Of a DNA stretch of 64,000 nucleotides, positions 1,954-60,075 are shown in pieces. The translations under genes and the position numbers were made by a program. The DNA is taken from positions 1,426,001-1,490,000 of the forward strand of contig OY253670.1 in NCBI GenBank assembly GCA_958009085.1. Reading direction: 5' to 3'. Each line of letters opens with the position of its first letter. Position 1 is the first letter of the stretch. Source of the stretch: Protoeuglena noctilucae. Its lineage: Eukaryota. A model generated the notes under the pieces. The model had not been told where the DNA came from, did no database searches, and saw only the letters and a list, made by a program, of their open reading frames with translations.

Positions 1954-2078
1954 ACGGTGCGTTGCCACTAGTCGACTTATCTCGCGGCCCATGCACTTAG
2001 CGTCGCGTTGAAACGCGCCCATGCTGCCGGCCAGCAATGCGCGCCTCATCATGGCGACGACGACGACGCGCCACCCCC

Positions 2079-3761
2079 CTACTCCAGGAACATGCGGAAG
2101 CGGCTTGCCAAGAGGGCAGTCCCAGGAAGGGGTCCGGGCCGCGGGCAGAGGAGCGTGGCCATCAGCTCCCCCTCGCGCTCGTGCAGAGCCGTGACGTACA
2201 CGAACCCTGCCACGTTCCTGCGGGGCAACGGCAGAACTCCCGACAATGTCCAGCTAATCCTGGGATTGAGCAGAGCAGCGAGTACACGAAAAGTTCGCCA
2301 CTCGCCTGAAGAGCAAGTCGCTCTCGTCCGCAGCGTAGGTGACGGCCAAGACGCGCTTGTCGAGGTCCTGGGGAGCGACGCGGGTCACCTTCATCGGGTC
2401 GCTCACGGGGCGAGCACCGATGGGGAGAGCCGTGGTGGGGAGGTTCGCCGTGGGGTTCGTGACCTGGAACACAGTGAGGCTGGCAGCCGGCACCACCTGC
2501 GGGGGGAGCAGAACAGATCGGCGGTGCCCTCGCAAACACAGCGCACGGGACGCGCACTGCGATGTCGCTCGCACCTGGGAGTGGGGCTGCAGGTCACCGC
2601 GGTGGCCATAGAAGTAATCGCGCAGCCGACCCTGGCGGGCTGCCCGGCGGTAGTCCTTGTCCCTCGTCACCACCCCGCCGCTCCTCGGGAGCGCCAGTAC
2701 CTCCACGTTGGACCCCCTGAGCAGCTGCGTCAGCTGGGCATACAGTCGGTCCTGCCCCACCACGCAGACGACATCCGCCTCGAAGGTGCGGACCGTGTGC
2801 AGGAGGAGCTCGAGACCGAGGCCCTCGACCCAGCCCATGGTGTTGATGATGTGGCCGGCAGCGTTGGCACGCGGGTCGAGCTCGGCACGCTTGGCCAAAA
2901 CAACAGCCAGCTGCTCCACCAGGTGCCGATACAGCTGTGGGTTGTCCGATGGGCTGATGTCGCCGTAGTAGAAGACTGCGCGACGGGGCCAGGGTGGGCG
3001 GACCGGACTGGGAGGCGGGGTCAAAAGAGCGTGCCAGGCGACAGGCGCATCTCTGGTCGCAACTCTGGTCCCCTGTGACCGTGAGTCCTCCTCCCTCGTC
3101 GCCTCTACCATCCCTCCACTCACCGAGAGGCGCTTCCAATGGAATGCCTTCCTCGATGTCGACAGGCGCCTCGAGGACCGCGGCGCTGACCGACCCTGGG
3201 ATGGTGATGGACCCCTGCCCCACGTCCACGTCCACCAGCGCCGGCTGCCACGCGCCCCTCGCAGCCCACGATCCCAACATGCGTGTGATGGTCGACTTGC
3301 CCGCGTCCATGGGGCCCGCCACCACCACGCAAGGACCCCGCGACTGCGCCTCAAAGGCACGCTGCCGGCGCGCATCCAGCGCCGCGTGGAGTTGGAGGTA
3401 CATGGGCATCGGAGTGTCGTCACTGACATACGCCATGGTCCCAGGCCCGCCGCTCGCGGGGGCTGGCTCCGCCGCCACCTCCACGTGCCCGCCTTCCCAC
3501 GAGTAGATGGCCACGTTGGTGCCGCGAAGCTGGACGCGCTCACCCAGACGCAACTGCAGAGAGATGCCAACATCTGAATCCATTCACCGCGGGTCCGCAC
3601 GCGCGCGATAAGCGCCGGAACCACGGGCCCGCTCTCGCCTCGGTCCCAAAGACCTCCGCCGTCCCCTCCTTCAACATGATTTCCGCCTCAGAGCCCGAGA
3701 GTACCTCCACGCGAAGCTCGCTCCGGGGCCGGATCTCGTAGCTGGTCACCGTCCGCGCCAT
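2079..3761 (-). CDS. CLP1: Clp1 polyribonucleotide 5'-hydroxyl kinase / mRNA cleavage factor II subunit
   Basis: Motifs are SELRVEV, GTAEVFGTE, P-loop GPMDAGKST, DVDVGQG, IINTMGWV, RSGGVV, DYFYG and NVAGFVYV. There are 4 introns, two with GC donors (3638, 2305). Stop is TAG at 2081-2079. Confidence 0.93.
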
Positions 3762-4163
3762 CGCAGCCCCGTCCCACGGCCCCCGCGGTGCAGCCTCGTT
3801 CCGCAGCCAGGCGCGGCACGCTGGGGGAGACCTGAGACCTGCTCGGGCGTTCACGTCGACTGACAGCGATGCCGTGATGGGCGGCAGCCAGGGCGTGGCC
3901 AGGCCAAATGCACAGCCGCCCCTGCGTCGGGGCGTCGGACATGGGTTAAACCAGGGTTTGCCACGGCAGCTGAAGCAGCACTGGCGCGAGCAACTCCCGC
4001 GCACTCTGCTATGAATGCCATCGCTGAGCTACAGCTGCAGTCCGCGTCCATCTCCGATTCTTGTCTGCAACGAGCGCGTGCGCATCCACTGTGGCGAGAG
4101 CACGGCTACAGTCCACCCGCCGCTGTCTCGCCGTCCCCAAGCAGTGACGTTCACAGCGCGGAG

Positions 4164-5190
4164 ATGGCCAGGACGCTGGGGCTCCTCGCCCTGCTAGGAG
4201 CAGCGGTTTGCGTCGCCTCGGGGGAGCGCGGGCCTCTCTTTGCATGGAGTTCAGTCCCGAGCGACATTAGCGAGGGATTGCGGCTGTCCTCGCGCGCGGT
4301 GAGAGCCTCCCTGGCGCGCATCGGGACGACTGGTTCGCTCCCCGCGCCGTCCAGCTGCGTTTGCCGCCTAATGCCCACGCATCTCAGCTCTACTGCTTAT
4401 TCGGAAGCGGCTGCTGTGCTGCTTTTGGCCCATCACCCAGCGCGGGCACGGAAAACCGCCCCGTTCCTCTGAGTGTCCTTCCCCCCGCTTTCGCTCAGGG
4501 CGCGACACGGGATGCGGTGACGGAGGCCATAGATGCGCTCGTAGGGGACGCGGAGGCCGTCGTGGTCTTCCTTGGCCACGCGGCTTCCGCGCGGGACCTG
4601 AGGGGCTCGGCCGTGGAGGTGCGTTGTCGAGCGGTCCCCGCGCGGTGGCTCGCAGGCCTGGCCAAGCGTGATCGCACGGAGCTGAGACCTCCCGTTCGCG
4701 CGCGCAGGAAGCGATGGAGGGATCCAGCGCGAGCGCCGCGTTCGCTGCCCTGGACGCTCCCAGGGATGTCGCGCTGGCCCTCGTGGAGCGCCTGCCGGCC
4801 GTCGTGGACGCCAGCTGCGGGGTCTTCGGGGGCCCGCGCAGGGGGGCGTCGGTCGACCTCGCTGGCCCCGCGGTGCTCGTGGCCTGCGGGCGAGGCCCCC
4901 TGGCAGAGGAGGACGCGCAGCTGCGGGCCCTCCTGGACGCCGTCGCTGCCGAGACACCTGGCGGCTTCGTGACCGTGTATGTGGGAGGCGGCGAGCAGCC
5001 ACGCGTGGCCGAGCGCCGCAGGCTGGTGGTCTACACGTCGGACTGTGGGGCCAAGTGCCGGGCACAGGTGGCGGCCGTGGAGGCCTTCGTGGTGCTCGTC
5101 GTTCTTGCCGTCTTCATGCTGCCGGCCTTTGGCCTGCTGGGCCGGCTTCAGAGCCCGACCAAGCTTGAGAAGGCCGAGGAGCAGGATTGA
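4164..5190 (+). CDS. Type I membrane protein resembling V-ATPase accessory subunit Ac45/Voa1 (ATP6AP1-like)
   Basis: Signal peptide MARTLGLLALLGAAVCVASG is followed by PLFAWS. The C-terminus is CGAKC-[TM]-LQSPTKLE, matching the TM + (T/S)PT(R/K)(F/L)(E/D) tail pattern of this family. Two GT-AG introns. Confidence 0.6.
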
Positions 5191-5329
5191 GGGAGTGGCA
5201 GGCGACGCTTCGGTTGAAAATGCGTGGCAGGCACGGATCCTAAAGGCAGGATGGGATGGTTGCAACTTAGTCTGCAAGACGACAAAGCCTAGATCATCGT
5301 GGCATTTTTTTCCCTACCGTGCACCGGCA

Positions 5330-6065
5330 TCACCGCCCCGAGGCCTGAGCTGCCACCCGCACGCGGCGGCGCAGGACGACGTCCTCCGGCCAGTCGGCCT
5401 CTCGAAGGCCGCTGTAGTCCATGGCTCTCACCACGGGAAGGGCGATGCCTTTCCGGCGCGCCAAGGTCGCCTGCAGGGGCGACGGGGTGACGGTGTGCTT
5501 TTGTCGCTGCGCTCGTGACGCCATCTCGCATCTCGACACATTTCTTGTACCCTCTTGTATCAATCGCGTCCAAGTGGGGATGAAGAGGGTGCTATGCGAC
5601 TTGCGCCGCCGCGGTCCAGGGATGGATACACTTCGGGCTCTGTGCGCGCCTGAACAGCGTCCGAAACCGTGTTTGCGTCACCGCTACAATCTCTTACCTC
5701 GACATGACTGAAGGCGTGAAAGGCGGCGTGCGATAAGGCTGCCATGCTCGTCAAGCCCCCGCCTGCGTAACAGGGCATCACAGCAGGCTCGGAACCAGAT
5801 GCAAGCGTCTGAGCGTATGTGAGCCACCACGTCTGCTGTTTCCGACACCAACGCTCCTACACCTGCCCTGCGGTAGGCCAACGACTCACAGAAGAACGGC
5901 AAATCTCGGGTGGCGTCCATGGTCACGTCGAGGGCTTTGGAGACCAGTGAGGGGCTCGGGGGTGTCGGAAGGCTGAAATCATGCCCCGCTCGATTTCATT
6001 CGACGGCAGAAGATGCCTTGCCGCGAAAATCGCGTTGTCAGAACCTACGTCCTGGCTCCTTTCAT
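5330..6065 (-). CDS. Small hypothetical protein (~101 aa, 4 exons)
   Basis: Exons 6065-6049, 5972-5890, 5762-5698 and 5470-5330 total 306 nt in frame. Donors are GTAGGT, GTGAGT and GTAAGA, and all acceptors are CAG. The start could extend upstream in frame. Confidence 0.55.
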
Positions 6066-6416
6066 CGAGGCCGGAAATCCAATGGCAATTTGTCGATTTC
6101 GGGAGCTGGAGGATACGATCGCCGAGTCCCAGACGAGCACGCCCGGGGTCGCGCGACACCTCGGTGAGATTTGCGTGGCATGCAGGGCCCACGGTCCGCG
6201 CGGCATTCGATTCGTGACGTACGTGCCGGACAGTGCTAGGTCACCGTCCCGCGCAATCCCTGGATATCTGCTCAACCTTCTATTGCTCACGCACACATCG
6301 CGCTCCTCGCAGCGTCACTGTAGCGGTCGTCGCTGAGAACCGCGCGGCATTTGGCGTCCATCGATACCACCGATCGCTGTTGTCCATCCGGACGGCTTCG
6401 CCATTTCTCGCTGGAG

Positions 6417-9251: not shown

Positions 9252-9699
9252 GGGCGGAGGAAGACGGGGACGAGGGCGACGCCGGGGACGAGGGGTGGGG
9301 GGAGGTGGACGAGTGGGTGCCAGGCACCTGAGGGCATACCTACCAACTCCCTGTATTTGCGTCGTCTGGCCCTCATTCCTTTGCATCCCGCCTCTCACAC
9401 CACGCATGCCACTTCCCGCCGCGCCCGTTGCACCTCTTATGCACTCAAGCCATGCGCTCTCCAGTCCTTGGCTCCGGCTGGATGACTGACCGCCGCGTTT
9501 GCGCTTTGTGCCCTCCCTCCCCTGGTGTAGGAACGTCTGGCATTGGCCTTCAATCCACGGATCGAACAAACGAGCTCCTATACAGTGGGCTGCACCTAGA
9601 ATCGTGCCTTGATGTCACATGCAAGTTTAAGGCCGTGCGGCGCCAGGGCAGGGGCATGTGCACACCGATTCCTTGACCTGCACTTCTAACTAGTCGCCC

Positions 9700-23349: not shown

Positions 23350-23507
23350 GCGTCGCTCCTCACGCCCCACCCCGCTCGGCGCAGGGTGTTGGAAGAGGGC
23401 TTCCCCGGGGGACTCGAGTGCGTCAAGGAGGGGAGGGCCATGGAGATGGAGTGGGAGGTTGCGTGCTAGTGTCACTTGCGTCACTTCAATCTCCGACCGT
23501 GTGAGTC

Positions 23508-25790: not shown

Positions 25791-26019
25791 GGCGCGTGTG
25801 ACAACTCAATGCCATGCCACGCCTGGCTAAAAGGCCGGAATGTCGTGGAGCGTCGTGTATGGAATGCGGTGAGAGGAATTGCGTGCAAAGGCCAGTATGC
25901 GTCAGAATGCATGTGCTCACTCACTGGCGCACTCGTGCTCGGGTGTGTTTTCAATCGTGGATGGGATATCTCAGCATACTGCATAGCGACATGGCCGGAG
26001 AAATTCGGCCAAAGCACCC

Positions 26020-29000
26020 TCATCCCCTCTTGCCCTTCTTCTGATGGACCTGGCTTGTCTTCTTGCCCTTCGTCACGCCACCCCGGGCGGCGGACACCAC
26101 CCGCGCGAGCCCCTCCTTGCCCGTCTTGGCCTTGCTGCGCCGCCGGTTGAGCAGCTTGCGGTCCAGGGGCCAGTACGCGTATGGCTCCAGCTTGGACTTG
26201 CCCTTGACGTCTGCAAGCAAAGCAACGGCGGAGTCCGTGAGGCGGCACTCGGCACTCGGCCCAAGCAGGTCGGCGCAGCGCGGCCGCGACGCCCTCACCG
26301 CCCTCCGCCGATTTGGACTGGTACTGCTTCCCGCTGTGCTGCTGGAACTTGCGCTTGCCCTGCTGGGCCTGCCTGCGGGCAAAGGCGAGCGCCCCGCATC
26401 GCCCATCCGCCGGGTGGCCGCATATCTGCCGCAGACCCAGCGTCCCTCCGCCGCCCCCGCGCACCTCTTCTCGGCGAGGCTCTTGGCCACCGACACGGCG
26501 CTGACCGTGCGCCCCCCCACCGACATCATCCCCACCGACGGCGCACCTCCCGCCGACCGCGCGCCCCGGCCCCTCCGCCCCCACCGCCGCATGTCCGCGT
26601 CGTCCTCCGAGCCGCTCTCGTCGCTGTCCTCGCCCCCTCGGCCGCGCCTCACGCCGTCCTCCTCGAAGAACACGGGCTTGCCCTCCGCATCGAGGGGGAC
26701 CGGCTGCGGGAGGAGGGGCACGGGTCAAGTAGGCACGCTGTGGCAGCGCACACGAGCCATCCTGAACACCCGCAGCCCCTGTCCATTCAAGATCCACCCA
26801 CCTCGTCGTCGCCCTGTGCGTCTTCCCGCGCCCTTGCCCCCCGCACCCGCCGCCCGGAACCCCCCGCCAGCAGATCCGTGGGATCCTCCGACTCGCGCAC
26901 CCGCCCCGCCACGGCGCGCCCTGACGCCCCCGGCGCAGACGACGCCCCCGCCCCCGACAGCCCCCCCGCCCCCGTCTTCCCCGTCTCTGAGAAGATGCGT
27001 GTGGCGTTCCACTCGGAGGCACGCGCCGTGCGTGCCATGGTGGAACGCGTCTGCCGCGACGACAGGGACTGCGCGAGGGTGCGTGATTCCGCGTCTCGCC
27101 CCCGCGATCGCTGGCGCCGGCGACCTAGGCAAAATAAAAGACAGCCAGCCCCCGCCCCTCACCGCGTCGTCGTCCCCGTCCCTCCTCTTCTGCTTGCGCC
27201 CCTGCTCCTTGCGGATGTGCGCCAGCAGTCGCGCGTCTGAGGCGGGGAAGGCGGCCGCCACGGCGTCGAACCCGCACCGACGCGCCATGCGCTCCACCAC
27301 GGCGCGGACCTTGAGCTTGAAGCGGTTCTTCGAGTCGCTGGCCCACAAAAGCATCCCCTCCAGCATGGGGGCCACGTAGGGGGTTAGGTCCTCCACGGGG
27401 AGCCTGGGGGCACGGGGTGACACGGGCGTCCAGCGGCAGCCACTTAAGCAGACGGGACCTCGCACGACCGCCGTCAATGGTGGTCATCATGCGCAATGCC
27501 TCGCTGCGGCCCCCGCATGGCTCGCCTCATGACGACGACCTTGCAGAACCCCAGGACGGACTTGACGACCTCGCGGGCCTTGGAGCGCAGGAGCATGAGC
27601 ACGGCGGGCATCAGCTGGCCCAGGAGCGGGCGCATCTGCGGCGCGAACTCGTACAGCAGGCGCGCCAGGGCCATCACGGCCGCCGACATCATGTGCGGGG
27701 TCTGCCCCACCAGCCCCGCCAGCACCACGCGCACCAGGTCGAACAGGCCCCCGCTCTGGGCGTCCCCCGACGAGCCCTCCCCCATGTCCGCGTCCCCCTC
27801 CCCCCGCTCCCTCTCCCTCGCCGCCCCCTCCATCTCGTTCCCCAGCTCCACCAGCAGGTCGTACGCGGCGGCCCGGGTCTTCTTGTTCGCCTCCTTCAGG
27901 CTCAGCACCACCTCCGTCACCAGCCCCGCCAGCACCCGCGCCCGCGCGTCCTCCCCGTCCCCCTCCTCCTCCCCCTCCCCCACGGGCACCAGGCGCGCCC
28001 CGGGGCGGCTGGCCTCCATCACCAGCGCCTTGACGCACCGCAGCCGGAAGCGCCGCGCCGCCGAGTTGCAGGCCGGCAGCGCTTCGGCCAGCAGCCCCAG
28101 CACCTCCTGCGCCCGCGGCCGCAGGAACCCTCGCCCGTGCTCGCACAGGTACCCCAGCACCTTGTAGGACTTCTTCTGCACCGACGCCTCCGCGTCCGAC
28201 ACCCCCGGCCGCGCCACAGCGTACAGCGCCGCCAGCTCCTCGGCGCCCAGCCCCCCGGCCAGGCACAGTGCCAGCTCCGTGAAGGCGCACCGCCGCTCCA
28301 CGGGCGTGTCGCCCCCCTCCGTCACGGGGTCGCGGGGGGGCGCGTCTGCCTGGGCGTCCGACACGACCTTGAGCAGCTTCTGCAGCACCACGCGGAAGAG
28401 CCCCGCCAGCACGGGGCGCGCGCACACGAGCGCGTAGGCCGACACGCAACGGGCAAGGGGGCCGCGGTGCTCGCGGGGGGTGGCCAGGAAGGCGTTGAAG
28501 AGGAGCGGGAGGAACTTGTCCGCCACGGAGCGCAGGGCGGACAGGGAACGCTCGCAGTCGGACGCTGCGGGCAGGGAGGGGAGGGTCAGATGGGGTCACC
28601 AGGGCCCCGAGCTGTGGCACGGCACCCGCCCGCCAGCCATCACACCCTCGTCACCCCCTCGCCCGTGAGCAACCCGCGCCGTGCTTCCTCACCCGAGAAG
28701 TCCCCCGGCACTGTCAGGTGCGCCTCGCTCCCCGCGGCCGCCGCGTACCCCGCCTCGGACGCCTCGTCCCCGGGGTCCGCTGCCACATGGTGCATGTCCG
28801 AGGGGTTGTGGCCAATGTCCTCGGCCGTGCCGTGTTCCCGGAGGAACTCCACCTGCTGCAGGCACATGCGCTCCAGAGCGTGGCAAATGGCCGGGCGCAG
28901 GTCGGGACGGTTGGCGAACGCCGCGCCCAGGTCATGGGCAAACTTGGGGATGGCCGTGTCCAGGTCCTTGGCCCAGGAGGCAAAGGAGCCCTGCGGAGAG

Positions 29001-33842: not shown

Positions 33843-34179
33843 GTGCGGTCGCCTTTTCTCAAACGTGTTGCGCCGCCCCTGCCGATCGGCTTGCGCCGAT
33901 TGAAGCAACGCTGCCAGACTAGGGCGAGAGGGATAATCAACGATGAGTGCGGGAGCCAGCACTTAGAGCTAACATGCGAACCGCTGGGGGGGTGGCCCCT
34001 CCCGGAATTCATCACAGCTTCCCGGCAAGGCGGGGGTCAGGCGTCAGAAGACGTGTCCCTTCACATGCTCACACCAACCGGGGCATGAGCTCCAGAGTAC
34101 GATTGCGGGTGTTGAGACGGAGATACCAGCTCGTATCGCAGACGGGGTGGCCAGCGCAGCGGGCTACAGCGTGTTCAGG

Positions 34180-37217: not shown

Positions 37218-37985
37218 ATGGCCAATGACGCCGACGCATGGTGTTGCCCCGTGAGACGCTCAGCGGTTGAAGTGAAGCAACGCAATGGTGATGCACTATA
37301 CCCATACCTGGTCACAATGCCATGGTGGCTTACCAGGCAGGCGACGAGGGCCATTGCGTGGAACGCAAATGGACCCTGCTGCCTCTGCCACCCCTGGACT
37401 GCCACTGGCTTGCCGTCCCAGGTCATCTGTAGGTCCAATCGCCTTGCCCGAGTTGGTATTGCAGCACAGCTGAGGCATCGTCGGGGTCCCGAAGCGGACA
37501 CGTGCAGCCATTTGGAAGCGGAGGGCCGGTCGGTGGGAAGGCATGTGCCGGGGTGTCTGGAGATCGACCGCCCCAGAGCTGAGTGCCCTTGTCATTGTCA
37601 GGGCGGGTCCGAAACGTTTAAAGGATGCCATGAGCACGTAGCGTTGGATGCTGAGGAAAAGCGACGCGCCCAGGCCAGCCGGTGGTGTAGGGGGCAGTGC
37701 GATGGAGGTGCTGCTGGGACCTGACTCCCAGCGGAAATGGCGGCGATCGTCGGTGGCATGGCATGGCGGGCAATCTGCCACACCCCTGGCGAAGGAGCCT
37801 TGTAATCGTCTTCCGTTGCCACCTTTTTCCTTGTGTACCGGCGTAGGAACCCTATCTCGTCCAGGATTCCCTGCCCGAGCGATTCGCGTCGTGCGTGCAT
37901 TGCTCCTCAACACTACGCCGTGCGTCACGACGGCCGAGCAGCGTAGGAATCGGGCTGCAGAGGGAGCGTGGTTGGCGGTAGCGCG

Positions 37986-40255: not shown

Positions 40256-40636
40256 GGACTAGGCGCAGCGGGGGAGGCCTGGCTTTGGGGCGTGGCCGTC
40301 GCATTCAATCGTGTGCGGCCATGCGGGACCGCGGCCCACGCAAGCGCGGCCTTGGGCTGCGGCGGACGTGTGCAGAGCGCTGCCGCTTCCTTGGGCGCGC
40401 GCTGTGCTATGGGGCAGCTTTGCTAGCAGTAATCGTGGCAAGCTTGTGCATGGCGGGTTAAGCCATCAATCAAGGGTCCTAAATGCAGGGGAGGTATATG
40501 GCCTGACCCGCAAAGCCCTCTGGGCGACGTAAAGACGTGAGGCAGCGGGAGGCGGGGTCGAAACGGGGACGTGGGTGCGGAGTGACTGGCCGCTCGGAAA
40601 GCCGCCACCGCGCGACTCGGGGGTCGCGACGCGGCC

Positions 40637-42461
40637 TCAGTCCCCGAGCCCCTGTCGGGGTGCGACACGGAGGCCCCCGTCTGCCATGGCGCCGTTGGGA
40701 CCCAGGTGTGCAGCGCCGTTCATCAACTGCGAGGGCCAAGACAAAGGCGGAAGTTGGCGCGCAGGCGATGCAGTGGACACTCTTGGACGGGGCAGCAGAG
40801 AAGGGCGAGCCGGCAAAGTTGCAGAAGCGCTCACCTTGTGCACCAGCGGTGGGCCCCCGCCCGCGCCATTCAGCGGCATGATGGGTGGCGGCATGAGGGC
40901 GTCCGACACCCCCCCGTTGCGCTGACCACCTGCGTCTGGTGGCGACACGCCGTTGGCGAGCGGGCCGTACGCGTCGGGAGGCGGAGCTTTCCCCAAAAAC
41001 GCGCCCGCCTGCGCGTCATGCAGGCCCGCAGCGAGCGACCCAGGGTCCCCTGCACACAGGGCAGGGGAAGCAAGGTGTTCCCTGGTCATGTCACCCCGAT
41101 GCTTGCAGGCACGGCACCCTGCGGCTGGACGGCCCCGCACCTGCGCGATATCCCCCGCGGGGCAGCATCCCCGCCGCCGACCACGCCCCCGCTGCCGCCG
41201 CCGCCCCATACATGAGCTGCTCTGCCAGCCCCGCCTGCATCGCCTTGCTCAGAGGGCCCAGCTGGGCCAGCTGGGCCAGCTGTGCGCCCCGCATCTCCAG
41301 CAGCTGCTGGTACGCCTGCTTGTGCACCCCGTGCCCCAGCTGCGCCTCCCGCACCAGGAGGGCCTGCTGGTACTGCTGCAGGTGCTGCTTGGCGTGGATC
41401 AGGCTGGCGATGTACACGTGCCGCGCGCAGGGGCGGCCCCGTAAGCGCTGCAGGTTGGCCACCATGGCCGGCGGCAGGCCCATCGCCAGCCCTGGGTAGG
41501 GGAAGCCCGGGCCGGCCCCCGCCGGGGCGGGGGCCAGCATCCCCGGGGGGACCGCGAAGCCTGCGCTGGGGCCCGGGCCCGCCGCCGCGTGCGACTCGAT
41601 CCGCGAGCGCAGCCCGCCGCGCCCGCCGCCGTGCGGGTGCCCCGGCACGCCGGGAGTGTGGGCTGACGTGGACCGGGGCCCCCGCCCCCCGCCCCTCGCC
41701 GCACCGCCCCGCGTCACGGCGCCGCCCCTCGGCGGCACCGGCGGGCCCTCCGCCGCCCCGTTCGTCCCGGCCGCGGTCTGGGCAAGCTCGAAGAGCGCCA
41801 GCAGCGCGTCCTCCTCCGGGCTCTCAGCCTCCTGCGAGACCAGGGAGAGCGGACGCGGGTCCGTTCGGGGGCGCGTCGCCCGGTTACGCGGCGCGAAATA
41901 GCCCAAGAAGAGCGGCGGCGCAGGACGCGGGGCGTCTCGGGGCCCAGGCGGTCGCGGCCAGGCGATGCAGCACAGGCCGGCAGGCAAGGTGCCCCCCCGC
42001 GCACCACTGCGGCCTGCGCGTTCTCCGTGATAAAGACGACCGTCCGGGTGAGCGCCGCGCAGTCGGTGGGCGTCCTGCAGGGACGCACGGCGGGCGCGGG
42101 GTCGAAAAGCGTCCCGAGGAGACTCCTCGGCGACCGGGCGCCTCCCCGCCGGGCCCGGGCCCTACGCGCGACCGCGGCGACTCCATCGACCGGTTCGACC
42201 CCTCCCGCGCAAACCTTTTCCGCAGGGAGCGACGGCGCCTGGGGATCGAGGGTTGGGGCTCCTCCCCGTCCAGCCACGACCGCCCGCCCGGGTCGAGGTC
42301 GGTGCCCCGCCTCCTCATGACGACTCCTTGACGCAAGCTCCCCCCAACTGCGGGAAGGACAGGCGCCGGGAGCTGCGGGCTCGGGGGTCGCGTCCCGACT
42401 TCGGGACCGGGCGCTCCCGCCGCTGGCCGATGGAGCCAGCGGCAAACCCATTGGAATCCAT
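40637..42461 (-). CDS. Low-complexity protein with TIME FOR COFFEE-like motifs; N-terminal exons unresolved
   Basis: RPCARHVYIASLI..KQ resembles the plant TIC motif KRCATHxYIAxxI. There is an upstream EEDALLALFELA helix and a Q/A/G/P-rich C-terminal half. Start uncertain (42318-42461). Confidence 0.55.
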
Positions 42462-42785
42462 TGCATCTGGGGGTGCGAGGGTCGCGCCTGGCCTGCAGGG
42501 GAGGCCGCAGGTCAACGTATTGGCCCACCCACGCCCCGCACCTCACCCGAAGCCCGACGCTGCCGACGTCAATCGATAATGCAGCGATTGATGGCGCGTC
42601 GGGGCAGCGCGGGGACTCTCGAATCCCCCGAGTTTTCTGGCGCCAAGGGGAACACGAGTCGAGGCCAGTCCACCTCGACCTCGCGTATTTCGTCGCTTCG
42701 TCCACGCGACCGCGCTGCATCGCTGCATTCCCCACTCCGAGGCCGAGTTCTCGCATCCCACAACAGTGCAGCGGGCCCGCCGACC

Positions 42786-44221
42786 ATGATCGCGGCTTCG
42801 TGCATCGCCGCGACCCCGCGCGCCGCGTGCGCTGCGGCTCCGCGCCCGGCGCGCTCGATGCGGGCAGCTGCCGCGCGCTCCGGACAGGTGGGGGCCCCTG
42901 CATCCGCTCCCCGCACGTCCATGCGCAAAAACGACCACCAGGATGCCATCCGTGCCGGGGCTGGCGAGCATCCGCGGCCCTCGACGCGCCCGCGACGGGC
43001 CCTGGGTTCGTGGCTGAAGGTTCTCGCCCTCGCCGCGCCGGGCGAGAGCGCTGTCGTTCCCGCTTCCGTGGACGTCCCCTTTGCCGATGGGCGAGGAATC
43101 CGCCGCTCGAATATCTCAGCGTCTCGAGAGCCCGGTGGACCCAGCTGGCCTTTTCCGTCTGGGCACGCCTCTGCGCGCTTCCACCCTCCGCCAGCTGGCG
43201 CCCGTCGCCCTGTCATCGCATGGGATGGTCTCCATGCGCTCGTCCGCCAAGCGGGGCAGCCATCCGACGCGCCATCGCGCGCGTGCAGACCATCGCACGC
43301 GACGCGACCCCCCCTCACCCTCGCGCGCAGGAAGGCTCCGTCGCGGTCGCTGAGCGCCTCGCCGCGTCGTCGGTGATGATCGCTGCGGCTCTGTCCATGG
43401 CCGAGCCCGCCCAGGCTGCGGGGGGGGCGTACGGCATCCTGGAGGGTCGGACGGCGGCACTGGTTCATCCGGCGGTGATGGGGACGCTGTTTGTCGGGTG
43501 CGCGCTTGGCCGCCCGTCCACGACATTGACACGCATCCCGGGTGCATGGAGCTAGGTGGGATCGGTGCCAAGCGCCCAGCCACCCCCAACGCAGGATGCT
43601 CTTCTCTGCGTACACGGGGTTCCAGTGGCGGCGAGCGCGCACCATCGCGCAGGAGATCAAGGAGAAGAAGGCGCAGCTGCCGGCCCCCGACGCTGAGGGC
43701 AACACCCCGCCCTCCCCGGCCGCCGACGAGGTCAGGGCGCTGGAAGAGGAGCGGAAGAAGATCCTCGCGGGGGGGTTCCGGGACAAGCACTGGGACATGG
43801 GCAACATCCTGCTCGCGGGGGGCGTGGGGCTGGCCATCGAGGGGTGCGTCAACACCTACATGCGCACGGAGCGGCTCTTCCCGGGGCCGCACCTGTTCGC
43901 CGGGGCCACCATCGTCGCTCTGTGGGCGGCAGCCGCTGCCCTGGTCCCCGCCATGCAGGTGATCTAGCCTGAGGGGGTTCGCACCCACCCACGCGTCATT
44001 CTTGCCTCATTCTTGTTCCTGTTCGCTCCATGCATACTAGCCCCAGAGCCTGCACCCAGGCCAGCGATGTTGCCTGCCCCCCGCCTCCGCAGAAGGGCAA
44101 CGACGCTGCCCGGACGGCCCACATCTCCCTCAACGTGCTCAACCTGGCGCTCTTTACGTGGCAGGTGCCCACGGGGCTCGAGATCGTCGGCAAGGTGTTC
44201 CAGTTCACCCAGTGGCCCTGA
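42786..44221 (+). CDS. DUF4079 family plastid membrane protein
   Basis: Transit peptide followed by GILEGRTAALVHP, GFQWRRARTI, RDKHWDMG, LFPGPHLFAG, ARTAHISLN and WQVPTGLEIV. Three GT-AG introns. Confidence 0.9.
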
Positions 44222-44405
44222 TGCAGTAACGCCGCCCTTGGATGCCACGCCAGGCGTGCCACGGCCGCAGCATGCGCCCGCATAAGCATGCAATGCTGAG
44301 CTGCTGCCGCGCGTGGGGAGCCCGGGCATCCACACGAATCCCACCTAGTTTCACCGAACACCTCCCAGCCCGCGTGCGCTGGAGTCGCAATTCAAACGAT
44401 TCAAG

Positions 44406-49558: not shown

Positions 49559-49849
49559 GACGAGGCAAGATATGGAGTCCGTTCTCGGCCCGCCAACTTA
49601 GCAGACACACGTGCAGATTACGCAGTGCAGCCCAGGCCCACTACACACTATAGAGGGCATTTCATGGTGCCCAGGGACACGAGATAAGACGAACACCAGC
49701 ATGGAAGCGCGTGCGGGGAACGGAGCTGATGCAAGTCGCGACGTGGTTGCCTGCGCGCCGAGTGCCAGAGATGACTCCACCAGTTGCAAGGGATCGGACG
49801 CCTTCCGGCTCTGCCATTCCTCATCCCTCTGTCGTGCAAGGGAGGCGTC

Positions 49850-52459: not shown

Positions 52460-52694
52460 TGCGCCAATCGAGGGGATGGCGCAAGGGCGCCATGCGGCTG
52501 GACGGCTGGTGGTGCGGTGTAGGTGGGGCTGCGATGACCTATTCAGGAGCATAGAGTTGAACAGCTCTCGTGGACTAAGGTCGGGTCACGGAGGACGGCA
52601 GGTTGTGCACTCTTTGTTTGTGAGGCAATGGCCTGGACAGGATGGAACCTGGGATCGCCACTTTCCCCTCGCCGAGCCTCGTGCAGAAGACCAG

Positions 52695-53310
52695 TTTTTT
52701 TTTTTTTTGCCAGTGAGGATTCAAAGAGATGACGGCTAGGGCACCCTCAAAACCCTACCCGCTAGAAAACCCCGAAGGGAAGAAGAAGAAAAGAAAACGT
52801 GGAGACACAGAGGTCGGTGTAAGCCGCCAAGCTAGCAAACGCGGAGAAGAAACCACTCCCCCCCTAGCCCCCCCATCCCGGCTCCAGCGGAACACGGCGA
52901 AGGGGTGGCGGCTGCGGGGGAGGCAGAGGTGGGAAAGAAGAAAAGAGGTTTTGAGTGACAGGGATGGCCTTGAAGAAGACCCCATGGGAAAGGGAAGGAT
53001 CATGGAGGTTCTGGAACAGCGGGGCCGTGACCGGGGAAGCGAGGCGGGCGTGAGAGGCAAGGGCAGAGGAGATCCTGTGGCCGGCGTAGGAGACAATGCG
53101 AGCGGCCCCTGCCCACGCTGGGGCATCAGGTGGGTCGAGGAGCAGCATGGGGGGTGCACCGGGGAGCGGGTGGCCCGTGCGCCAGTAGCGGCGCGCAGTG
53201 ACGATGGCATGAAGAGTCTCAGACCAGACAAGACGCCAAGCGGGGGACCTGAGAAGGTCGGAGCTGGCATGGGTAGCGCCAAACCGGAAGAGGAGCGCGG
53301 TGGGAGTGCG
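52695..53310 (-). mobile_element. Probable 5'-truncated non-LTR retrotransposon or retrocopy ending in poly(A)
   Basis: T14 at 52695-52708 is an A14 tail on the minus strand. It is preceded by a pyrimidine-rich 3'UTR and an intronless ORF end (stop 52864) containing WRLVWSETLHAIVTARR, reminiscent of LINE ORF2 C-termini. No TSD found, and the 5' boundary is approximate. Confidence 0.45.
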
Positions 53311-53679
53311 ACATTGTCGAAAGAGCGCGGCGCGCAGATCTCGCAGCGCCGCTGCGAGCGGACGACAGAACCGGGTCTGTTTCTGACTGGCACGAGCAAC
53401 CAACAGCACCGCCGCTGCCTGCTCAGACAACAGTTCGCGGTCCTGGGGTGCACAACGTGTCGCATTAATACATACGCTTCGTCTGCGATCGCCAGCACCG
53501 AGCGCGGCTGGTGCGTCCGCGTCTGCTTTTCAAAATCGGCTCGATCAGTTTATGGGGGACTGCCGCGGTCGCCGAGCCCTGCATCCTTGCCACAGTAGAA
53601 CTGGTGAAAAAATGCATCTCATGAGCTTACTCGCTTTGCGTCAAACACCGCAGGGAGAACTGCCAGGCGGGGGAGGGTC

Positions 53680-55962
53680 ATGCGGGCCAAAACCCTGCAA
53701 ATCCATTGGCACGCCGAGCAGCCGGTGCTGTCCGTGGACTTCAGCAACGATGGCGTACTGGCCACGGCCGGCGCAGACAAGACCGTCAAGCTGTGGGCTC
53801 TGCGGGAAGATGCAGGGGGGCGCCTTTCAGGTGAAGCGCAGCCAGTTCCTAGCCGGTCAGCCCTTCGTCGCTCCCTCGCCCTGGTTCAACTCCGACGGCC
53901 CTCCCTCGCGTGCCCCTCGCGTGTCACGCGGCACCTGCCACCGCTTGCCCCCCCTCCGCAGCGGCTTTCCTCTCAGAGCTTCCCCGCCACACCACTGCGG
54001 TCAATGTTGTGCGCTTCTCGCCCGCCGGCGATCGCCTGGTGACGGGGGCAGACGGCGGCGATATCTTCGTGTGGCGCCCGGCGCCGCACGAGCACGCGGA
54101 GACGCTTGGGGGCGAGGATGCCGTGGCGGGCGACCCTGCGCACTGCTGGAAGCCCGTCAAGATGGAGCGAGCCGTGGGATCGGATGTCATGGACGTCGCG
54201 TGGTCCCCGGACGGCACCGCGGGTGAGGCATCGCCGTGGGCAGGCCGAGGCACTGGGACGGTGCCCAGCCCTGCCCTCGGCACCAATCGCGCTCGCTCCC
54301 GCAGTCGCGGCCGGGTCCATTGAGAACGAGACGGTCATCCTCGACTCGTCGCCTGGATCCCACGTCCTCGCTCGCTACCGGGACCATCGGCACTTCGTCC
54401 AGGGCGTCGCCTGGGACCCCTGGGGCGTCATGCTGGCCACGGCGGGGGGCGACCGCACCGTCCGCGTGTACTCGCTCAAGCAGGCCGCGGGGGGAAAGAA
54501 GGCCGCGGAGAAGCGCACCAGTGCTCAGCGCGCCCGCAATTTCGCCCTGCGCCACACCCTGCGCAGCCGCGCCTCCCAGGCCGCAGCCGAAGGGGCATCC
54601 GGCTCGGCTGCCCCCACGAACCAGGTGCTCGGTCGGTGCCAGAGATCGTCGCCGCCGCTCCGCCGCTCCGGCCTGCCCCTGTCGACGCCCTGCCGCGTGC
54701 CCCTACCTTGCAGGCTGCTGCCGATGCCCCCCCACGCAAGCTGCCCATGTGGCAGGACGACTCATCCTGCGCCTTCTTCCGCCGCCTGTCCTGGTCTCCG
54801 GACGGTGCCTTCCTCCTCGCCCCGTCCGGCCTCTTCCAGGACGGACCCGACGCGCCCACGCGCAACGCCTGCTTCCTCCTCCCCCGGGGGGACGCCGCCC
54901 GCCCGGCCGTGGTGCTGCCCGGGCTCGGCACGCCCTCCGTGGCCGCACGCTTTTGTCCCAAAGCCTTCCGGCTGCCGGTGAGCGCGGCTTGTGCCTGCTC
55001 GTCAATCACCCACACGCATTCGTACGAAGTAACAGGCACACCCACCGTCGGCGCCCATGGACCTCCCGACTCGCAGCAGCAGCCAACGTCGTCTCTCTCA
55101 TCCCACAACCACTCCCTGCATGCCTTACCCCGACTCCATGCTCTTCCCATTGACCCCAGGACCCTGCGCCGGCCAGCCCCATGACCGGCCTCCCCTACAA
55201 GCTGGTCTTCGCCGTGGCGTCCAAGGACTCCGTCGCCATCTACGACACGGCGCACACGTCCCCCATCGCCGTCGTCGGGGCCCTCCACCTGGCGGAGATC
55301 ACTGACCTGGCCTGGTCGCCCTGTGGGCGGCGGCTGGCCGTGTCGAGCCGCGATGGCTTCTGCTCCGTCGTGGCCTTCGATAAGGGGGAGCTCGGGGAGC
55401 CGCTGGGAGAGGTGGGGGCCGGGCGTGGGATGGGGGAGCAGCTGTGCATGCTCCGTGCAGGGTGGGGTGGTGAAATGACGCCCTTTCGCCCCCACAGGAC
55501 GACTTCCCCGCGTCCATTCGGCACCTCTTCGCGCCCAGGGAGGCGCCTGCCCCAAGCACCCCGCCTGCCTGCCCCCCCCGCACTACGCCGACCGCCACGC
55601 CCTCGCCCGCCCGAGGCGCCGGTAGCGAGCGCCCGTGCGCGCAAGCGGACGGAGAGGAGGGGCCAGGTCCTGCCGCGGCGGGCAGCGCGGCAGGTGAGTC
55701 AAGGAGGTGCATCCAGCCTGCCCCTGTGGGGCGCAAACGCGTGGCACCGGTGGCGGTGAAGGGGGGGTCCGGAGCGGCGGGAGACCCGTCGGGCGGTGAC
55801 GAGACGGCGGGGAGTGTGAGGGCGAAGAGGCAGAGAGGGGCAGAGAGCGGGGGCGACGGCGCTGACAAAGGGGCCGAGGGGGCTTCCGGTAGCGAGGCGG
55901 ATGGGGGGGGCATTGCGGCGGCGGCCATTGCGGCAGCCATGCAAGCCGCACGGCGCGGATGA
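53680..55962 (+). CDS. FAS2: Chromatin assembly factor 1 p60 subunit (CAC2/FAS2/CHAF1B), WD40
   Basis: Motifs are MRAKTLQIHWH...VLSVDF, HTTAVNVVRFSP, DHRHFVQGVAWDP, FFRRLSWSPDG, LPYKLVFAVAS, LHLAEITDLAWS and SSRDGFCS. C-terminal B-domain-like motifs RRCIQP and RKRVAP. Confidence 0.92.
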
Positions 55963-55976
55963 GCAGCATTGACGCG

Positions 55977-56010
55977 GCGGGCTCTTCACGCGCAGCGGGC
56001 TCTTCACGCG
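55977..56010. repeat. Two exact copies of GCGGGCTCTTCACGCG (period 18) between convergent stops
   Basis: Copies at 55977-55992 and 55995-56010. Confidence 0.85.
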
Positions 56011-56124
56011 ACGCACGGTATGCGATTGAAGTGTAGCCGGCCAGCAGGGACAAAGACAGGATACGTGTTTTTGTCCCTATACAAGCGCACAATGCGACGC
56101 CTACCCAGCAAGGGCAGACCCTCC

Positions 56125-57879
56125 TCACTTCTTCCCCTTCTTCTTCCCCTTCTTGCCTTTCCGGCTGTCCAGCACCGTCCGCCACCACGCCTGCACCACA
56201 TCCACCGCCATGTCTGCGTGACGGGGCAGCCCCTGGCCAGTGAGGGTGCGTGCCCTGGTGGACCCGCCCCCGGCCCACCCAACCCCCGCGTCCCTCCCCC
56301 GCCTCACCCTGTCGGATTTTGCGCATGGCCAGCTTGAGCTCCTCTTTCATGCGGTCCCTCTCCGCCTTCTCGAACTTGACGCGCTCGTCCCGCATCAGCT
56401 CCGTCATGGTGGTCATGTCCTGCACCAGCTGCGCCTCCTTGTCGCTCGCCTGGGGAAACACGGGGAGTGGGGGTCAATAAGCTTTGACGAAACGTCGCTG
56501 GCCCCAAGAGGTGGCCGCGGTGGCTGCGTCATCTCTGGTGACAGGCAGGGCCCGACCGCCCACCCCCCGTCACCAGCTGGTGCTCCTCGTACTGCCCCTG
56601 CTTCTCTGTCATGAGCGCGTCGTAGTCCTTCAACGCGTCCTGCAGGTAGTTCATGGCCTGCCCCTTCTTGGTCTTCTCCTGCAGCTCCAGGTTGGCGTGC
56701 CGCTCCCGCGTGGCGCGCAGGCGCCGCAGTAGGTCGTCGCGCTCCTTCTCCAAGCGCTCCTTCTCCATGCGGCAGTGCACCGCGTCCTCCTCCCGCTCCC
56801 GCGCCTCCACCTCGTCCGTGTCCACCATGGCGCGGCGGAAGCGGTCCGTCACCACCTGCGGGCGACCTGATGCAGATGTCGCACCGTGCCGGGCAGCGTC
56901 TTTCCATCACCCCGCGACGCCCCCTGCCTCGCCTTCGTGTCCGCCTTGAGCCTCTCCTCCAGGCGGTCCAGCTCCGCCGACTCGCGCTCCCGCTCCTCGC
57001 GCTCCATCTTCAGGGCCGCCATCAGGGAACTGCGCTCCTTCTCGTTGCGCTCCAGGCGCTCCTTGGTCTCCATGCTCTGCTCGTTCCGGCTCCGCTCCTC
57101 CTCCACCGTCATGTCCAGGCTGCGGGGGCCAGGAGGGAGCGCTAGGAATGTCGCATGGCCGCGGCTTCCCGCAAGCCCCACGCGGCCAGCGGCGCCCGCG
57201 CGCCGCACCTCTGCTTCATGATCTCCCGCAGACGCATGAAGAGGTTTACGACGTCCTGCATCGCCTCGCTGGGCTCGAGCACGGGGCCCGTGAAGAGGGC
57301 ACGCTCGCGCGGTGACGCATGGATCGCCCGCAGCACGTCCGTGGTGGACTTGAACACCTGCTCGCTCTGGATGTCCGAGCGGTTCGCCTGGATAATGGAA
57401 CGGTGCGTGTCTGCGGCGGGGCGTCGCGGGTACGGGTTGGCAGGGCGGCAATGGATGCACCCGCAGCTGTCGCGGCCTCCGATCGCCGAGCGGCGCCGTC
57501 ATGGCGGCGCACCGAGCAAGTCGAGAAACTCGTCCGGAAAGCCCGCGTTCTCGAAGTCGCCCCGGTCGAAAACAGCCTCGGTGACCCGGGAGAGGATCCT
57601 GCACGACACAGCGGGATGGAGGCTCCAGCGCTCAACGGGGTGGAGCGCTTCGCACGCGAACGAGTATCGCATGACGCACACCGCGGTATCCACCTATTCA
57701 GCATGTCGGCTCGGGTCAAGGCGCGCCCGGCGCGGCGCGGCGTGACGCTGCGAGACCATGTACTCGGCGGATGACCGCGGGCGAGCCGACGACCGCATCC
57801 GCCGCCCACCCGCGCACCTGAGGTTCACGATGGCATCATCCAGGACGTTGATAATCCTGTTGCCTTCCAAACTGTTCAT
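56125..57879 (-). CDS. DRC10: Dynein regulatory complex subunit DRC10 / IQCD-like coiled-coil IQ protein
   Basis: N-terminus EGNRIINVLDDAI and FKSTTDVLRAI, a long coiled coil, and a C-terminal IQ-like VVQAWWR followed by KGKKGKKKGKK*. GC donor at 56932. Confidence 0.75.
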
Positions 57880-58404
57880 CTCAGCCCGCTCCCCGCGTGG
57901 TTTGCGGGGACACCCGCGCCGCCTGCCGACGGCCCGTCAGGCCCCAGCCCCCGCTGCCTCTGTCACTCGCAGCAGCTAGCCGCAACACTGAGCTGCTGGA
58001 TTGGGCAGAAGCCGTATGTAGTGAAATGGGAAGGTCTTCGAGCAAAGCCCAGTGCAAAAGCTCAGTGCAGAGGCTATAAGCGCGGCAAGTGACGCAAGCG
58101 TGCCTGTTGGCGGATCCTGCCGACGCGGCGCTGCCGCGTCCGGGAAACACTGCCCCGGAAACGTTTCTCTGACTGGGGCATTCCCCATCCCCCGGATCTC
58201 GAACGATGCGAAGTTGCGGCGTGGTTGACATTTGGCGCGAACAACGCATAGTCAGCACTGATGCCTGCTGCAGCTTGCTGCATCCTTTCAGCAGCGCATT
58301 GAGATCTGCACCGCGTGAAGGCGCCCGCATCGCTCTCTGTCCGCTGGTGCAATAAGACAGAGAGAACTGCAGCTTCCTGCGTGGGGAGAGGCCGGGGAGG
58401 CAGG

Positions 58405-59991
58405 ATGAGCACGCCTGCAGAGCGTGTGCAACGGGCCATGGAGTCTGGTGCGGGCCGCGGCGCGATCCTCAGAGCGGATCGCTCTCTCACTTGACAGGGC
58501 AAAGATGCTTTTGTTCGGGGGCACTCGTGGGCTGGCTTAGCGGGGCTGGGCCAGCAGCGCGAGGGGACCTCGCAACCCGGGCGCAGGCAACCCCTACGAG
58601 GCCCACGAGATGATGAAGACGGCGTTCTACCGGATGCGAAGCAAGGGGGACAACAGTGGGGCGTACGATCTTTGTCAGGAGGGGGCCGTCGCGCAGCTGC
58701 AGGCGGGGGAGATCAAGGTGACGGCGCTGGCGCCCCCTGTTCCCCGTCCGCTCCGATGGCCCGCGGCCCCGCCGAGCGTCGCGTTCCGCTCTCGCGTCGC
58801 AGTGTGGCACGGACATGGGCAAGCTGATGCTCGACGCGTACGTGTCGGATGACGTCACCCCAGACGAGCAGTCGGGTGAGGCGCGCTGAGCTCTCCACGA
58901 GTCCCCTCGCTCCGTCCCTTGCCTGGCTGCCACGGACGCTTCAGCCCTCAACCTCCACGCTCCCCTGGCCTCCCAGTCTCCCGCGTCCTCGCCATCCTGC
59001 GGTCGTTCCCCAAGGGCCTCGCGTCCCTGGCAACCCTGGACGTGGCGGCCATCTTCAAGGACGACACCTTCCCGTCCCCGCTGTCGGAGCTGACGCAGCT
59101 GGCGTCCCAGGCGGCCAAGTGGGCCAGGAAGAAGGCCCCTTTTGAACTCGTGCGGAAGATCCTCACGTGCGTACTGCTTAACAGCCCCTGTCCATGTCCG
59201 TGCTTGACGCGCAGCGCCGACCCTCCGGCTGGCACCGGGCCCATTGCTCACCACACTACCACCTCCCTCGCAGGGCTGAGGTGGACTGGCTCATCCCCGA
59301 GCTCGGCTGGCGGGGCTGCAACCTCGTCTCCACGCTGCTCATCCAGGCCAAGGAGCCCAAGCGGCTGGGGGAGTACCTGGTGGACTGCGCGGCGGAGGGG
59401 CGGGCGGAGGAGCGGGACCTGTTCGGGGCGCGGGCCGTGCTGCAGACGCTGGCGGCAGCGAAGGTGCGCGAGTGGGGTGCCGCTCCATGGGCCGTCGGGT
59501 CTGGGCTGGCAGACCTTGATGTTCTGCAAGTATGCTGCCTGCTGGAGCGGAGCTTCCCCGCTCGCCGCAGACCCAGCAGGAGGGGCGCCAGATGGCCGTG
59601 CATGCCAGGGAGCTCGTGGAGGCGTTTGACGGGGCGGGGAAGCAGCGGTTCGGCACGGCGCCCATGGACTCGCCCCTGGGCCGATTCTGCGCGCTGTTCC
59701 TCGAGGTGCGCGCGAGGACTGGAGGCTGTCCTACTGGCCGCAGCGATGCGGGGACCGGTGTGGGGCGGCACGGGACGCGGTGTCACTGCCCCGCTTCTGT
59801 GGTGATCGCAGGCGATTGAGCGGGAGAAGCCCGAGCTGGGCAAGATGCTCCTGCAGGCGTACCGGGCGAGTCTGCTGCGGGACCCGAACCTGCACGCCAT
59901 GGCCCAGCAGGCCCAGGGGACGGTGCTGGAGGGGCAGGACAGGGGCGCAGGGGGGCTGCTGGGGGACATCATGAAGATGTTCATGAGCTGA
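58405..59991 (+). CDS. GET4: Golgi to ER traffic protein 4 (GET4/TRC35)
   Basis: Motifs are GNPYEAHEMMKTAFYR, CGTDMG, EERDLFGARAVLQTL, SPLGRF..LFL and YRASLLRDP, with a C-terminus GGLLGDIMKMF. Six GT-AG introns. Confidence 0.88.
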
Positions 59992-60075
59992 AGGGCACGC
60001 GTGGGTGGTGCGGCACGGGCGAGGGCAAGCTGCATGTTGAAATCTCGCCCACTACACGTGCCCGCTGGCCACCCG

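Follow-up and report, generated by a model that had tools for sequence, protein, structure and literature searches.

UUGAA as a probable new polyadenylation signal in a chlorophyte alga

The window, a stretch of 64,000 nt, contains 19 gene ends and a truncated LINE copy. Gene ends throughout this work are ab initio predictions from a self-trained gene finder that carries no term for the strand or position of TTGAA. Within the window it returns the same genes as an earlier note made from the letters alone, and predicted introns agree with spliced RNA contigs at the joints inspected. Pfam backs the labels CLP1, MINDY, CAF1B and His_Phos_1, and weakly vWA; the remaining gene labels are those of the earlier note or were read off the translations. 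That note had proposed TTGAA, found shortly after many stop codons, as a non-canonical polyadenylation signal, and all 14 copies that it cited are present on the strand that it gave:

2008..2012, plus: TTGAA, 54 nt past stop 1953 of a CPP1-like gene, in a convergent spacer with CLP1
5214..5218, plus: TTGAA, 23 nt past stop 5190 (Ac45-like per the earlier note), tandem end
9549..9553, minus: TTGAA, 146 nt past stop 9700 of a VPS13-like gene, convergent with a ClpX-like gene
23485..23489, minus: TTGAA, 18 nt past stop 23508 of MINDY, in a 38-nt convergent spacer
25950..25954, minus: TTGAA, 65 nt past stop 26020 of an RRP12-like gene, tandem end
33900..33904, plus: TTGAA, 57 nt past stop 33842 (TRIC-like per the earlier note), tandem end
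37267..37271, plus: TTGAA, 49 nt past stop 37217 of a vWA-like gene, tandem end
40304..40308, minus: TTGAA, 328 nt past stop 40637 (TIC-like per the earlier note)
44391..44404, minus: two TTGAA copies, 1 and 10 nt past stop 44406 (MTase per the earlier note)
52557..52561, plus: TTGAA, 97 nt past stop 52459 of a GGR-family gene
52695..53312, minus: 5'-truncated LINE copy with the end of ORF2, a 3' UTR with TTGAA at 52724-52720, and an A14 tail 11 nt further on
56026..56030, plus: TTGAA, 63 nt past stop 55962 of CAF1B, in a convergent spacer
60037..60041, plus: TTGAA, 45 nt past stop 59991 of a GET4-like gene, convergent with a katanin p80-like gene

Within 250 nt after the predicted stop, the distance also used for the 800-kb counts below, sense TTGAA occurs at 11 of the 19 ends, whereas 200 dinucleotide shuffles of the flanks gave 1.64 on average and never more than 5. 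The six genes reported earlier to have no nearby copy (CLP1, ClpX, PGM, GTE, DUF4079 and katanin) indeed have none, nor has a seventh, with its stop at 56125 on the minus strand; these seven are partners in the seven convergent pairs of the window, one in each. TGTAA and AATAAA are absent from every convergent spacer of the window, as had also been stated.

We extended the survey to 800 kb (80 stretches of 10 kb on 23 contigs) of the 26-Mb genome, comprising 274 predicted gene ends. TTGAA ranks first among the 1024 pentamers after stops, with 123 matches against 34.7 expected, and again in the held-out set of 40 stretches outside the gene-finder training (51 against 17.3). It is present at 118 of 272 ends (~43%; shuffle mean 32.3, maximum 48), usually in one copy, at a broad range of distances from the stop (median 112 nt). 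The only other pentamer far above background in this sample is its own reverse complement. TGTAA is not enriched (14/272 ends, 18.1 by chance), and AATAA, at 0.18 per kb after stops, is rarer there than in introns (0.35), with no enrichment of the AAUAAA type. Among the 154 ends lacking TTGAA within 250 nt, no single-base variant is clearly enriched.

The motif is strict and oriented. At tandem ends, sense and antisense copies number 38 and 6 (p=9e-7), and density falls from 2.2-2.3 per kb after stops to 0.51 before divergent starts (~4x rarer), 0.26 in introns and 0.15 in CDS. TTGAA thus clusters downstream of stop codons on the sense strand and does not do so ahead of starts; the original observation withstood controls for strand asymmetry and base composition on this independent 800-kb sample. 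The shorter core UGAA, which the earlier note had left as an option, is rejected, since CTGAA, GTGAA and ATGAA are at or under expectation; the motif is UUGAA. Overlap with the stop codon itself (T|TGA|A) is likewise rejected, as it occurs at 7 of 189 TGA stops, about as often as the margins predict (5.5).

These controls bear on the explanation that base composition, repeats or misplaced gene ends simulate the enrichment. In its favour, exons are less AT-rich than the 3' flanks and the gene models are ab initio. Nevertheless, Markov expectations and dinucleotide shuffles were computed on the flanks themselves, and the strand asymmetry and held-out replication speak against it. A repeat origin is rejected: the 123 matches fall in 119 distinct contexts and only 2 are LINE ends. 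Wrongly called TGA stops would favour CTGAA and GTGAA, neither of which is enriched. We consider an artefact largely refuted and very improbable.

As only one orientation of TTGAA is found in each of the seven window pairs, we also considered a bidirectional TTSAA site. In 74 sampled convergent spacers, 17 have both orientations, 42 have one and 15 have none, the orientations being independent. Antisense copies at tandem ends stay at background, which excludes a palindromic DNA site.

Two 3' ends allow the spacing between TTGAA and the end of the RNA to be estimated. At the GGR-family gene, RNA contigs stop 9-13 nt past TTGAA in three of four runs, at 52570 (run X3, seen directly) and ~52574 (X1 and X2, inferred from record offsets); this RNA support comes from one gene in one study and consists of contigs only. 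The second end is that of the LINE, whose family A-tail begins 11 nt past TTGAA. The minus-strand TTGAA at 52724-52720 does lie 11 nt before the T14 tract (52695-52708), as the earlier note described, but the tract is the tail of the LINE and not a separate host-gene site, and therefore counts once, as the end of one retroelement family. Together, the two spacings place the start of the motif 14-18 nt before the RNA end, consistent with a near-upstream element; UGUAA peaks near -17 (PMC1868727).

Dispersed copies (21 matches) with a common A-tailed 3' end and 5' truncation identify the element as a LINE, and reverse-transcriptase matches lie upstream of copies on contigs C5, C8, C1 and C16. 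The copy at 52695-53312 is tentatively L1/Tx1-like; with poly(A)-tailed LINEs it shares the reverse-transcriptase ORF in longer copies, the variable 5' truncation and the A-tail. In a third LINE family, TTGAA and an A-tract are both missing from the 770 nt after the ORF, and the 3' end of another was not reached within 3.5 kb. Genomic A-tracts were rejected as stand-ins for poly(A) sites: TTGAA lies upstream in 11 of the 66 nuclear rows listed, and 10 of these are the same LINE end.

At the gene with stop 40637 the RNA ends do not fit: contigs end at 40271, 40338 and 40493, with one run-through, so that none of the four runs ends at the expected distance from TTGAA. RNA contigs of the convergent partner of the gene with stop 44406 end at ~44346-44357, before both TTGAA copies. 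No poly(A) tail was seen in the 24 of 66 loose contig ends inspected. In favour of cleavage shortly past the motif, the frequency of A is 0.236 at 5-17 nt past TTGAA against a background of 0.184, for an interval picked after viewing the profile.

The mismatch at the gene with stop 40637 would be expected if UUGAA were a 3' UTR element bound by an RNA-binding protein acting in stability, export or translation, at no set distance from the cleavage site. Its presence at less than half of the ends, its broad distance from the stop and the absence of depletion within genes (61 against 63.8 in CDS after synonymous shuffling, 53 against 57.7 in introns) agree with that role, although avoidance inside transcription units is common, not universal, for near-upstream polyadenylation elements. 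On the other side, no rival poly(A) word rises above background, the one enriched pentamer is mostly single-copy, and the GGR and LINE spacings concur and both fit the -17 rule, which makes this explanation unlikely. Slightly less likely still is that TTGAA is an auxiliary upstream enhancer of the CFIm type, or a site of pausing or termination at the DNA level, beside a degenerate core signal. The lack of avoidance, the ends without a copy and an altered CFIm25 pocket (see below) favour it, whereas both measured spacings are 9-13 nt and not 40-100 nt, and the strand asymmetry at tandem ends excludes a palindromic TTSAA site.

We therefore favour UUGAA as the main near-upstream polyadenylation element of this small marine green alga, the counterpart of chlorophyte UGUAA and most likely a new chlorophyte signal, with a probability of roughly 80%. 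We hold this functional role to be probable, not proven. On this view, the 3'-end machinery would bind UUGAA in nascent RNA, with cleavage and poly(A) addition ~9-13 nt downstream, often at an A. Genes without UUGAA (~55%) may use weaker or context-dependent signals, like 30-50% of ends in UGUAA algae. Our literature search found no earlier report of a UUGAA signal.

Genes for CPSF30, Fip1, a CPSF73/100-type subunit, CFIm25 and CLP1 are present; a search with two short motifs gave no convincing WDR33 locus. CPSF30 carries rare changes at base-contact positions (H70Y, K77V, K78L, F98E), and CFIm25 shows E55N, Q98E, F103Q, K105M and a one-residue deletion, with conserved pocket residues lost here and likewise in the pedinophyte YPF-701. 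In line with the altered signal recognition suggested in the earlier note, residues of both proteins are changed; their tie to UUGAA is something we only infer. The reader could be a remodelled CPSF30 zinc-finger pair and/or, as tentatively, a remodelled CFIm25 pocket.

The host is probably a pedinophyte (Pedinophyceae), judging from two nuclear markers and one named pedinophyte, with which it groups in the RCC2 tree (99/97, no long branches) and in the CFIm25 tree (99/96, long-branched). It is possible, if doubtful, that pedinophytes switched from UGUAA to UUGAA by jointly remodelling the CFIm25 RNA-binding pocket and CPSF30 ZF2-ZF3. If true, nature would have performed a swap experiment that reveals which protein reads the chlorophyte signal, and a few residues would suffice to re-specify a core eukaryotic processing signal.

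For comparison, we turned to metagenome loci around CPSF30 genes of other algae, using 30 of 80 and leaving out the other 50, mostly redundant or short. As a positive control, four groups show enrichment of TGTAA (9 vs 1.5, 12 vs 4.4, 5 vs 1.2 and 9 vs 2.8), where TTGAA is near expectation. Groups C, F and G show enrichment of neither word, and H and I are too small. In an initial control run, TTGAA reached 12 vs 4.5, strand-symmetrically, in one group; weak use in other algae may occur.

A passage of a 2026 survey (PMC13130582) calls the UGUAA reader in green algae unclear and gives CFIm25 as one candidate. This question becomes testable with a lineage that branches near the base of core Chlorophyta and has another pentamer and altered CFIm25 and CPSF30. 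Few eukaryotic poly(A) signals are on record, and UUGAA adds one; it has a bearing on the time of origin of UGUAA, and annotation and transgene terminators in these algae need it to be correct.

In metazoans and land plants, AAUAAA is read by CPSF30 ZF2-ZF3 and WDR33, and UGUA by CFIm25. The alga encodes the same machinery as listed above; it differs in having AATAA at background after stops and changed CPSF30 and CFIm25 residues. A close counterpart is chlorophyte UGUAA, the word that most green algae use (Chlamydomonas, Scenedesmus, Ulva, Prototheca, Helicosporidium, Scherffelia, Acetabularia; Ostreococcus), found within 50 nt of the cleavage site at 47-71% of ends (PMC1868727, table 2). Both are single strict pentamers ending in AA, on the sense strand, at roughly half of ends; UGUAA starts ~17 nt before the end, as UUGAA may. 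Nevertheless, positions 2 and 3 are swapped in UUGAA, UGUAA is at background here, and the position relative to cleavage, mapped for UGUAA in chlorophytes, is only hinted at for UUGAA. Giardia WGURAA (PMC11529991) is another motif in another lineage, a hexamer with flank effects that was mapped by long reads; like UUGAA, it appears to have replaced the ancestral signal in one lineage, and here too the CPSF30 zinc fingers carry substitutions.

TTGAA follows the stop in the sense orientation within 250 nt at 11 of the 19 gene ends in the window, whereas 200 shuffles gave a mean of 1.64 and a maximum of 5. Gene ends were predicted ab initio by a purpose-written self-training gene finder, which settled on GTGAG as donor and CAG as acceptor, recovered the genes listed in the earlier note and placed introns that agree with spliced RNA contigs at the joints displayed. 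All 14 positions at which that note had reported TTGAA carry it on the strand given, and, as it claimed for the short ones, no convergent spacer in the window contains TGTAA or AATAAA. The six genes it described as having no nearby copy indeed have none, nor does a seventh (stop 56125, minus strand); together they are the seven partners in the window's seven convergent pairs. In all seven spacers TTGAA occurs on one strand only, though in the wider sample the two orientations occur independently of each other. For the gene ending at 23469, the first sense TTGAA comes at 27317, and CLP1, a 3'-processing factor encoded inside the window (2079-3761, minus strand), has none nearby.

The pattern is genuine and holds throughout the part of the genome sampled, where TTGAA is enriched in a strand-specific and 3'-specific manner. 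In 80 stretches of 10 kb taken outside the window from 23 contigs (about 3% of the genome, 274 predicted ends), it heads the list of 1024 pentamers for the 250 nt after stops (123 copies, 34.7 expected), with its reverse complement, which comes from convergent partners, in second place; in the 40 stretches kept out of training it is again at the top (51 vs 17.3). The strand asymmetry expected of a signal in RNA is present at tandem ends of the 80-stretch sample (sense:antisense 38:6, p=9e-7), and the excess survives control of base composition (118 of 272 ends, compared with a mean of 32.3 and a maximum of 48 in shuffles), while TGTAA occurs at 14 of 272 ends, against 18.1 by shuffle. Per kb, TTGAA occurs 2.2-2.3 times after stops, 0.51 times ahead of divergent starts, 0.26 times within introns and 0.15 times within coding sequence; its distance from the stop has a median of 112 nt, and repeat ends account for only 2 of the 123 matches. 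More than half of the predicted ends have no TTGAA, and a search among them found no clear substitute word.

Of the 15 words that differ from TTGAA by one base, the reverse complement alone shows clear enrichment, with TTAAA and TTTAA marginal; the word is thus TTGAA and not TGAA; of the two forms first proposed, UUGAA stands and UGAA does not. A palindromic TTSAA reading was rejected, the orientations being independent across 74 convergent spacers. Neither coding sequence (61 copies, against 63.8 under synonymous shuffling) nor introns (53 vs 57.7 expected) avoid TTGAA, so its context must play a part, or else copies inside genes are tolerated.

RNA ends were read from contigs assembled from four marine metatranscriptome runs, X1 to X4 (three samples, one study). 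At the GGR-family gene (TTGAA 52557-52561), the X3 contig ends at 52570, those of X1 and X2 stop at about 52574 (from record offsets), on an A, and that of X4 ends earlier, at about 52427. At the gene ending at 40637, the contigs of all four runs end at distances from TTGAA other than the expected one, and at the gene ending at 44221, highly covered and without TTGAA, contigs end at about 44346-44357, short of the partner's TTGAA sites. No poly(A) tail was found among the 24 displayed of 66 loose contig ends. The earlier note had also counted a genomic A14 tract as independent support. TTGAA does lie 11 nt ahead of the tail in most tailed copies, but the tract forms the tail of a LINE, not an independent host-gene site, and this evidence counts once because all copies belong to one family:

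window 52695-53312, minus strand: LINE copy with the A14 tail
assembly contig C5:895874-898980: LINE family
assembly contig C8:121712-124644: LINE family
assembly contig C1:779898-782967: LINE family

The window copy has 21 genomic matches, the longer copies have more than 2 kb in common, and reverse-transcriptase (RT) matches lie upstream of four of these. Going by the GGR contig ends and the LINE tail, the two usable cases, the end lies 14-18 nt from the start of TTGAA, which hints at the spacing; UGUAA peaks near -17 (PMC1868727). The frequency of A at 5-17 nt after TTGAA, a range picked after the profile was seen, is raised to 0.236 from a background of 0.184, and is 0.199 for the variants.

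The LINE family includes long copies that bear RT, together with numerous very short ones truncated at the 5' end, some of which are the last 10-45 nt plus A-tail only. A LINE copy at locus L221 1765-3001 (C19:145180-146416) is split by an AT-richer insertion. For a related variant of the family, contig depth is close to 800 in two of the RNA runs, and a third LINE family has neither TTGAA nor a tail in the 770 nt after its ORF.

A scan based on a CPSF30 alignment gave 80 metagenome loci, of which 30 were used, in nine groups whose identities were assigned from CPSF30 sequence and GC. Four groups have an excess of TGTAA after stops (9 vs 1.5, 12 vs 4.4, 5 vs 1.2 and 9 vs 2.8), with TTGAA near expectation; three show enrichment of neither word, and the remaining two were of insufficient size. 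In a mixed version of the first group, a previous run that used retrained models counted TTGAA at 12 vs 4.5, with strand symmetry. In the closest relative (CPSF30 66% identical; loci L138/L139; 75% GC), TTGAA lies about 40 nt after the convergent neighbour's stop, a single case. At seven algal loci that otherwise use TGTAA (L158, L167, L170, L173, L184, L209 and L211; 58-66% GC), TTGAA lies 4-91 nt 3' of the CPSF30 stop, which could reflect a minor signal or common ancestry of one 3' UTR.

The genome encodes CPSF30 (C1), CFIm25, Fip1, a CPSF73/100-type subunit and, in the window, CLP1. Altered signal recognition had been proposed, and some residues at base-contact positions of CPSF30 and in the CFIm25 pocket are changed; WDR33, sought in the genome with two short motifs, was not located. 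CPSF30 is of the three-finger type, its spliced model agreeing with the stored protein P0001; at L116/L117 (C1:581.4-582.1 kb) it is just 136 aa long, has three zinc fingers and lacks a long tail. TTGAA occurs at +81 in its own 3' flank and at +30 in that of CFIm25. In human CPSF30, K69 and F84 contact A1, and H70, K77 and K78 contact A2 (bioRxiv 10.1101/209809). Here K69 and F84 are retained, with H70 replaced by Y, K77 by V, K78 by L and F98 by E. The comparison pattern caught 77 of 151 sequences, the query among them; of the 76 others, 15 have Y70, Volvox and Micractinium included, which makes it a core-chlorophyte trait, not a specific one. L78, S75 and E98 occur in none of the 76. The closest relative, which the pattern did not catch, has E98 too, and M78. 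F98 has a role in ZF3. The CFIm25 gene is located as follows:

assembly contig C5:560994-561728 (loci L126-L128): CFIm25, without E55, Q98, F103 and K105, nearly invariant in 100-110 homologues

This protein keeps R63, lacks one residue through a deletion and bears four substitutions: E55N (92 of 102 homologues have E, and none has N), Q98E (110 of 111 have Q), F103Q (94 of 111 have F) and K105M (109 of 111 have K or R). E55 and F103 have roles in UGUA recognition. F103 forms a stack with an adenine base in the Ap4A complex (PMC2425470), and an RNA-binding mutant carries R63S (PMC8139829). The loop is similarly rebuilt in Pedinophyceae sp. YPF-701, while Volvox, Chlorella and Bryopsis retain the canonical one. 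Such changes could either re-specify the pocket or just relax it, and CPSF30 and CFIm25, one or both, are candidate readers of UUGAA.

The assembly (26.33 Mb, 27 contigs) has nuclear rRNA genes on C12 and two organelle-like contigs, C26 and C27; the window, at C3:1,426,001-1,490,000, has 70% GC. The organism groups with YPF-701, the sole named pedinophyte among the hits in both protein trees, for RCC2 (support 99/97, long branches absent; best named orthologue, 54% identity) and CFIm25 (99/96, branches long), and by these two markers probably belongs with the pedinophytes. Identity to YPF-701 is 54-56%, so it is a different organism. One chromosome end (C20:887034-887078) carries CCCTAA/TTAGGG repeats rather than TTTAGGG, the usual green-plant telomere repeat, and is adjoined by an RT ORF and compound A-tracts. 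On the small contig C24, a unit recurs every 2.3-3.2 kb, each ending in an A-tract. Some predicted donors among the sampled introns are GC (GCGAGG; 17 of 413 in one training round), and a few long predicted introns are rich in TAA/TAG/TAC repeats.

We consider it probable (about 0.8) that the 3'-end machinery recognises UUGAA in nascent RNA, in which case cleavage would fall about 9-13 nt downstream. Among the papers that the searches listed, mostly from non-subscription literature, no title or abstract opening reported UUGAA as a poly(A) signal, or any poly(A) signal for Pedinophyceae. The main text of PMC1868727 mentions neither UUGAA nor Pedinomonas, and its supplementary word lists may bear on UUGAA; the main texts of PMC11529991 and PMC13130582 do not mention UUGAA, nor do the available parts of PMC7896298 and bioRxiv 10.1101/2021.10.04.463119 mention polyadenylation. 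According to table 2 of PMC1868727, UGUAA is the top word in 6 of 8 chlorophytes, second in Scenedesmus and absent in Pyramimonas. UUGAA is not a member of the AAUAAA signals; it would work like the chlorophyte near-upstream element, yet it is not a UGUAA member.
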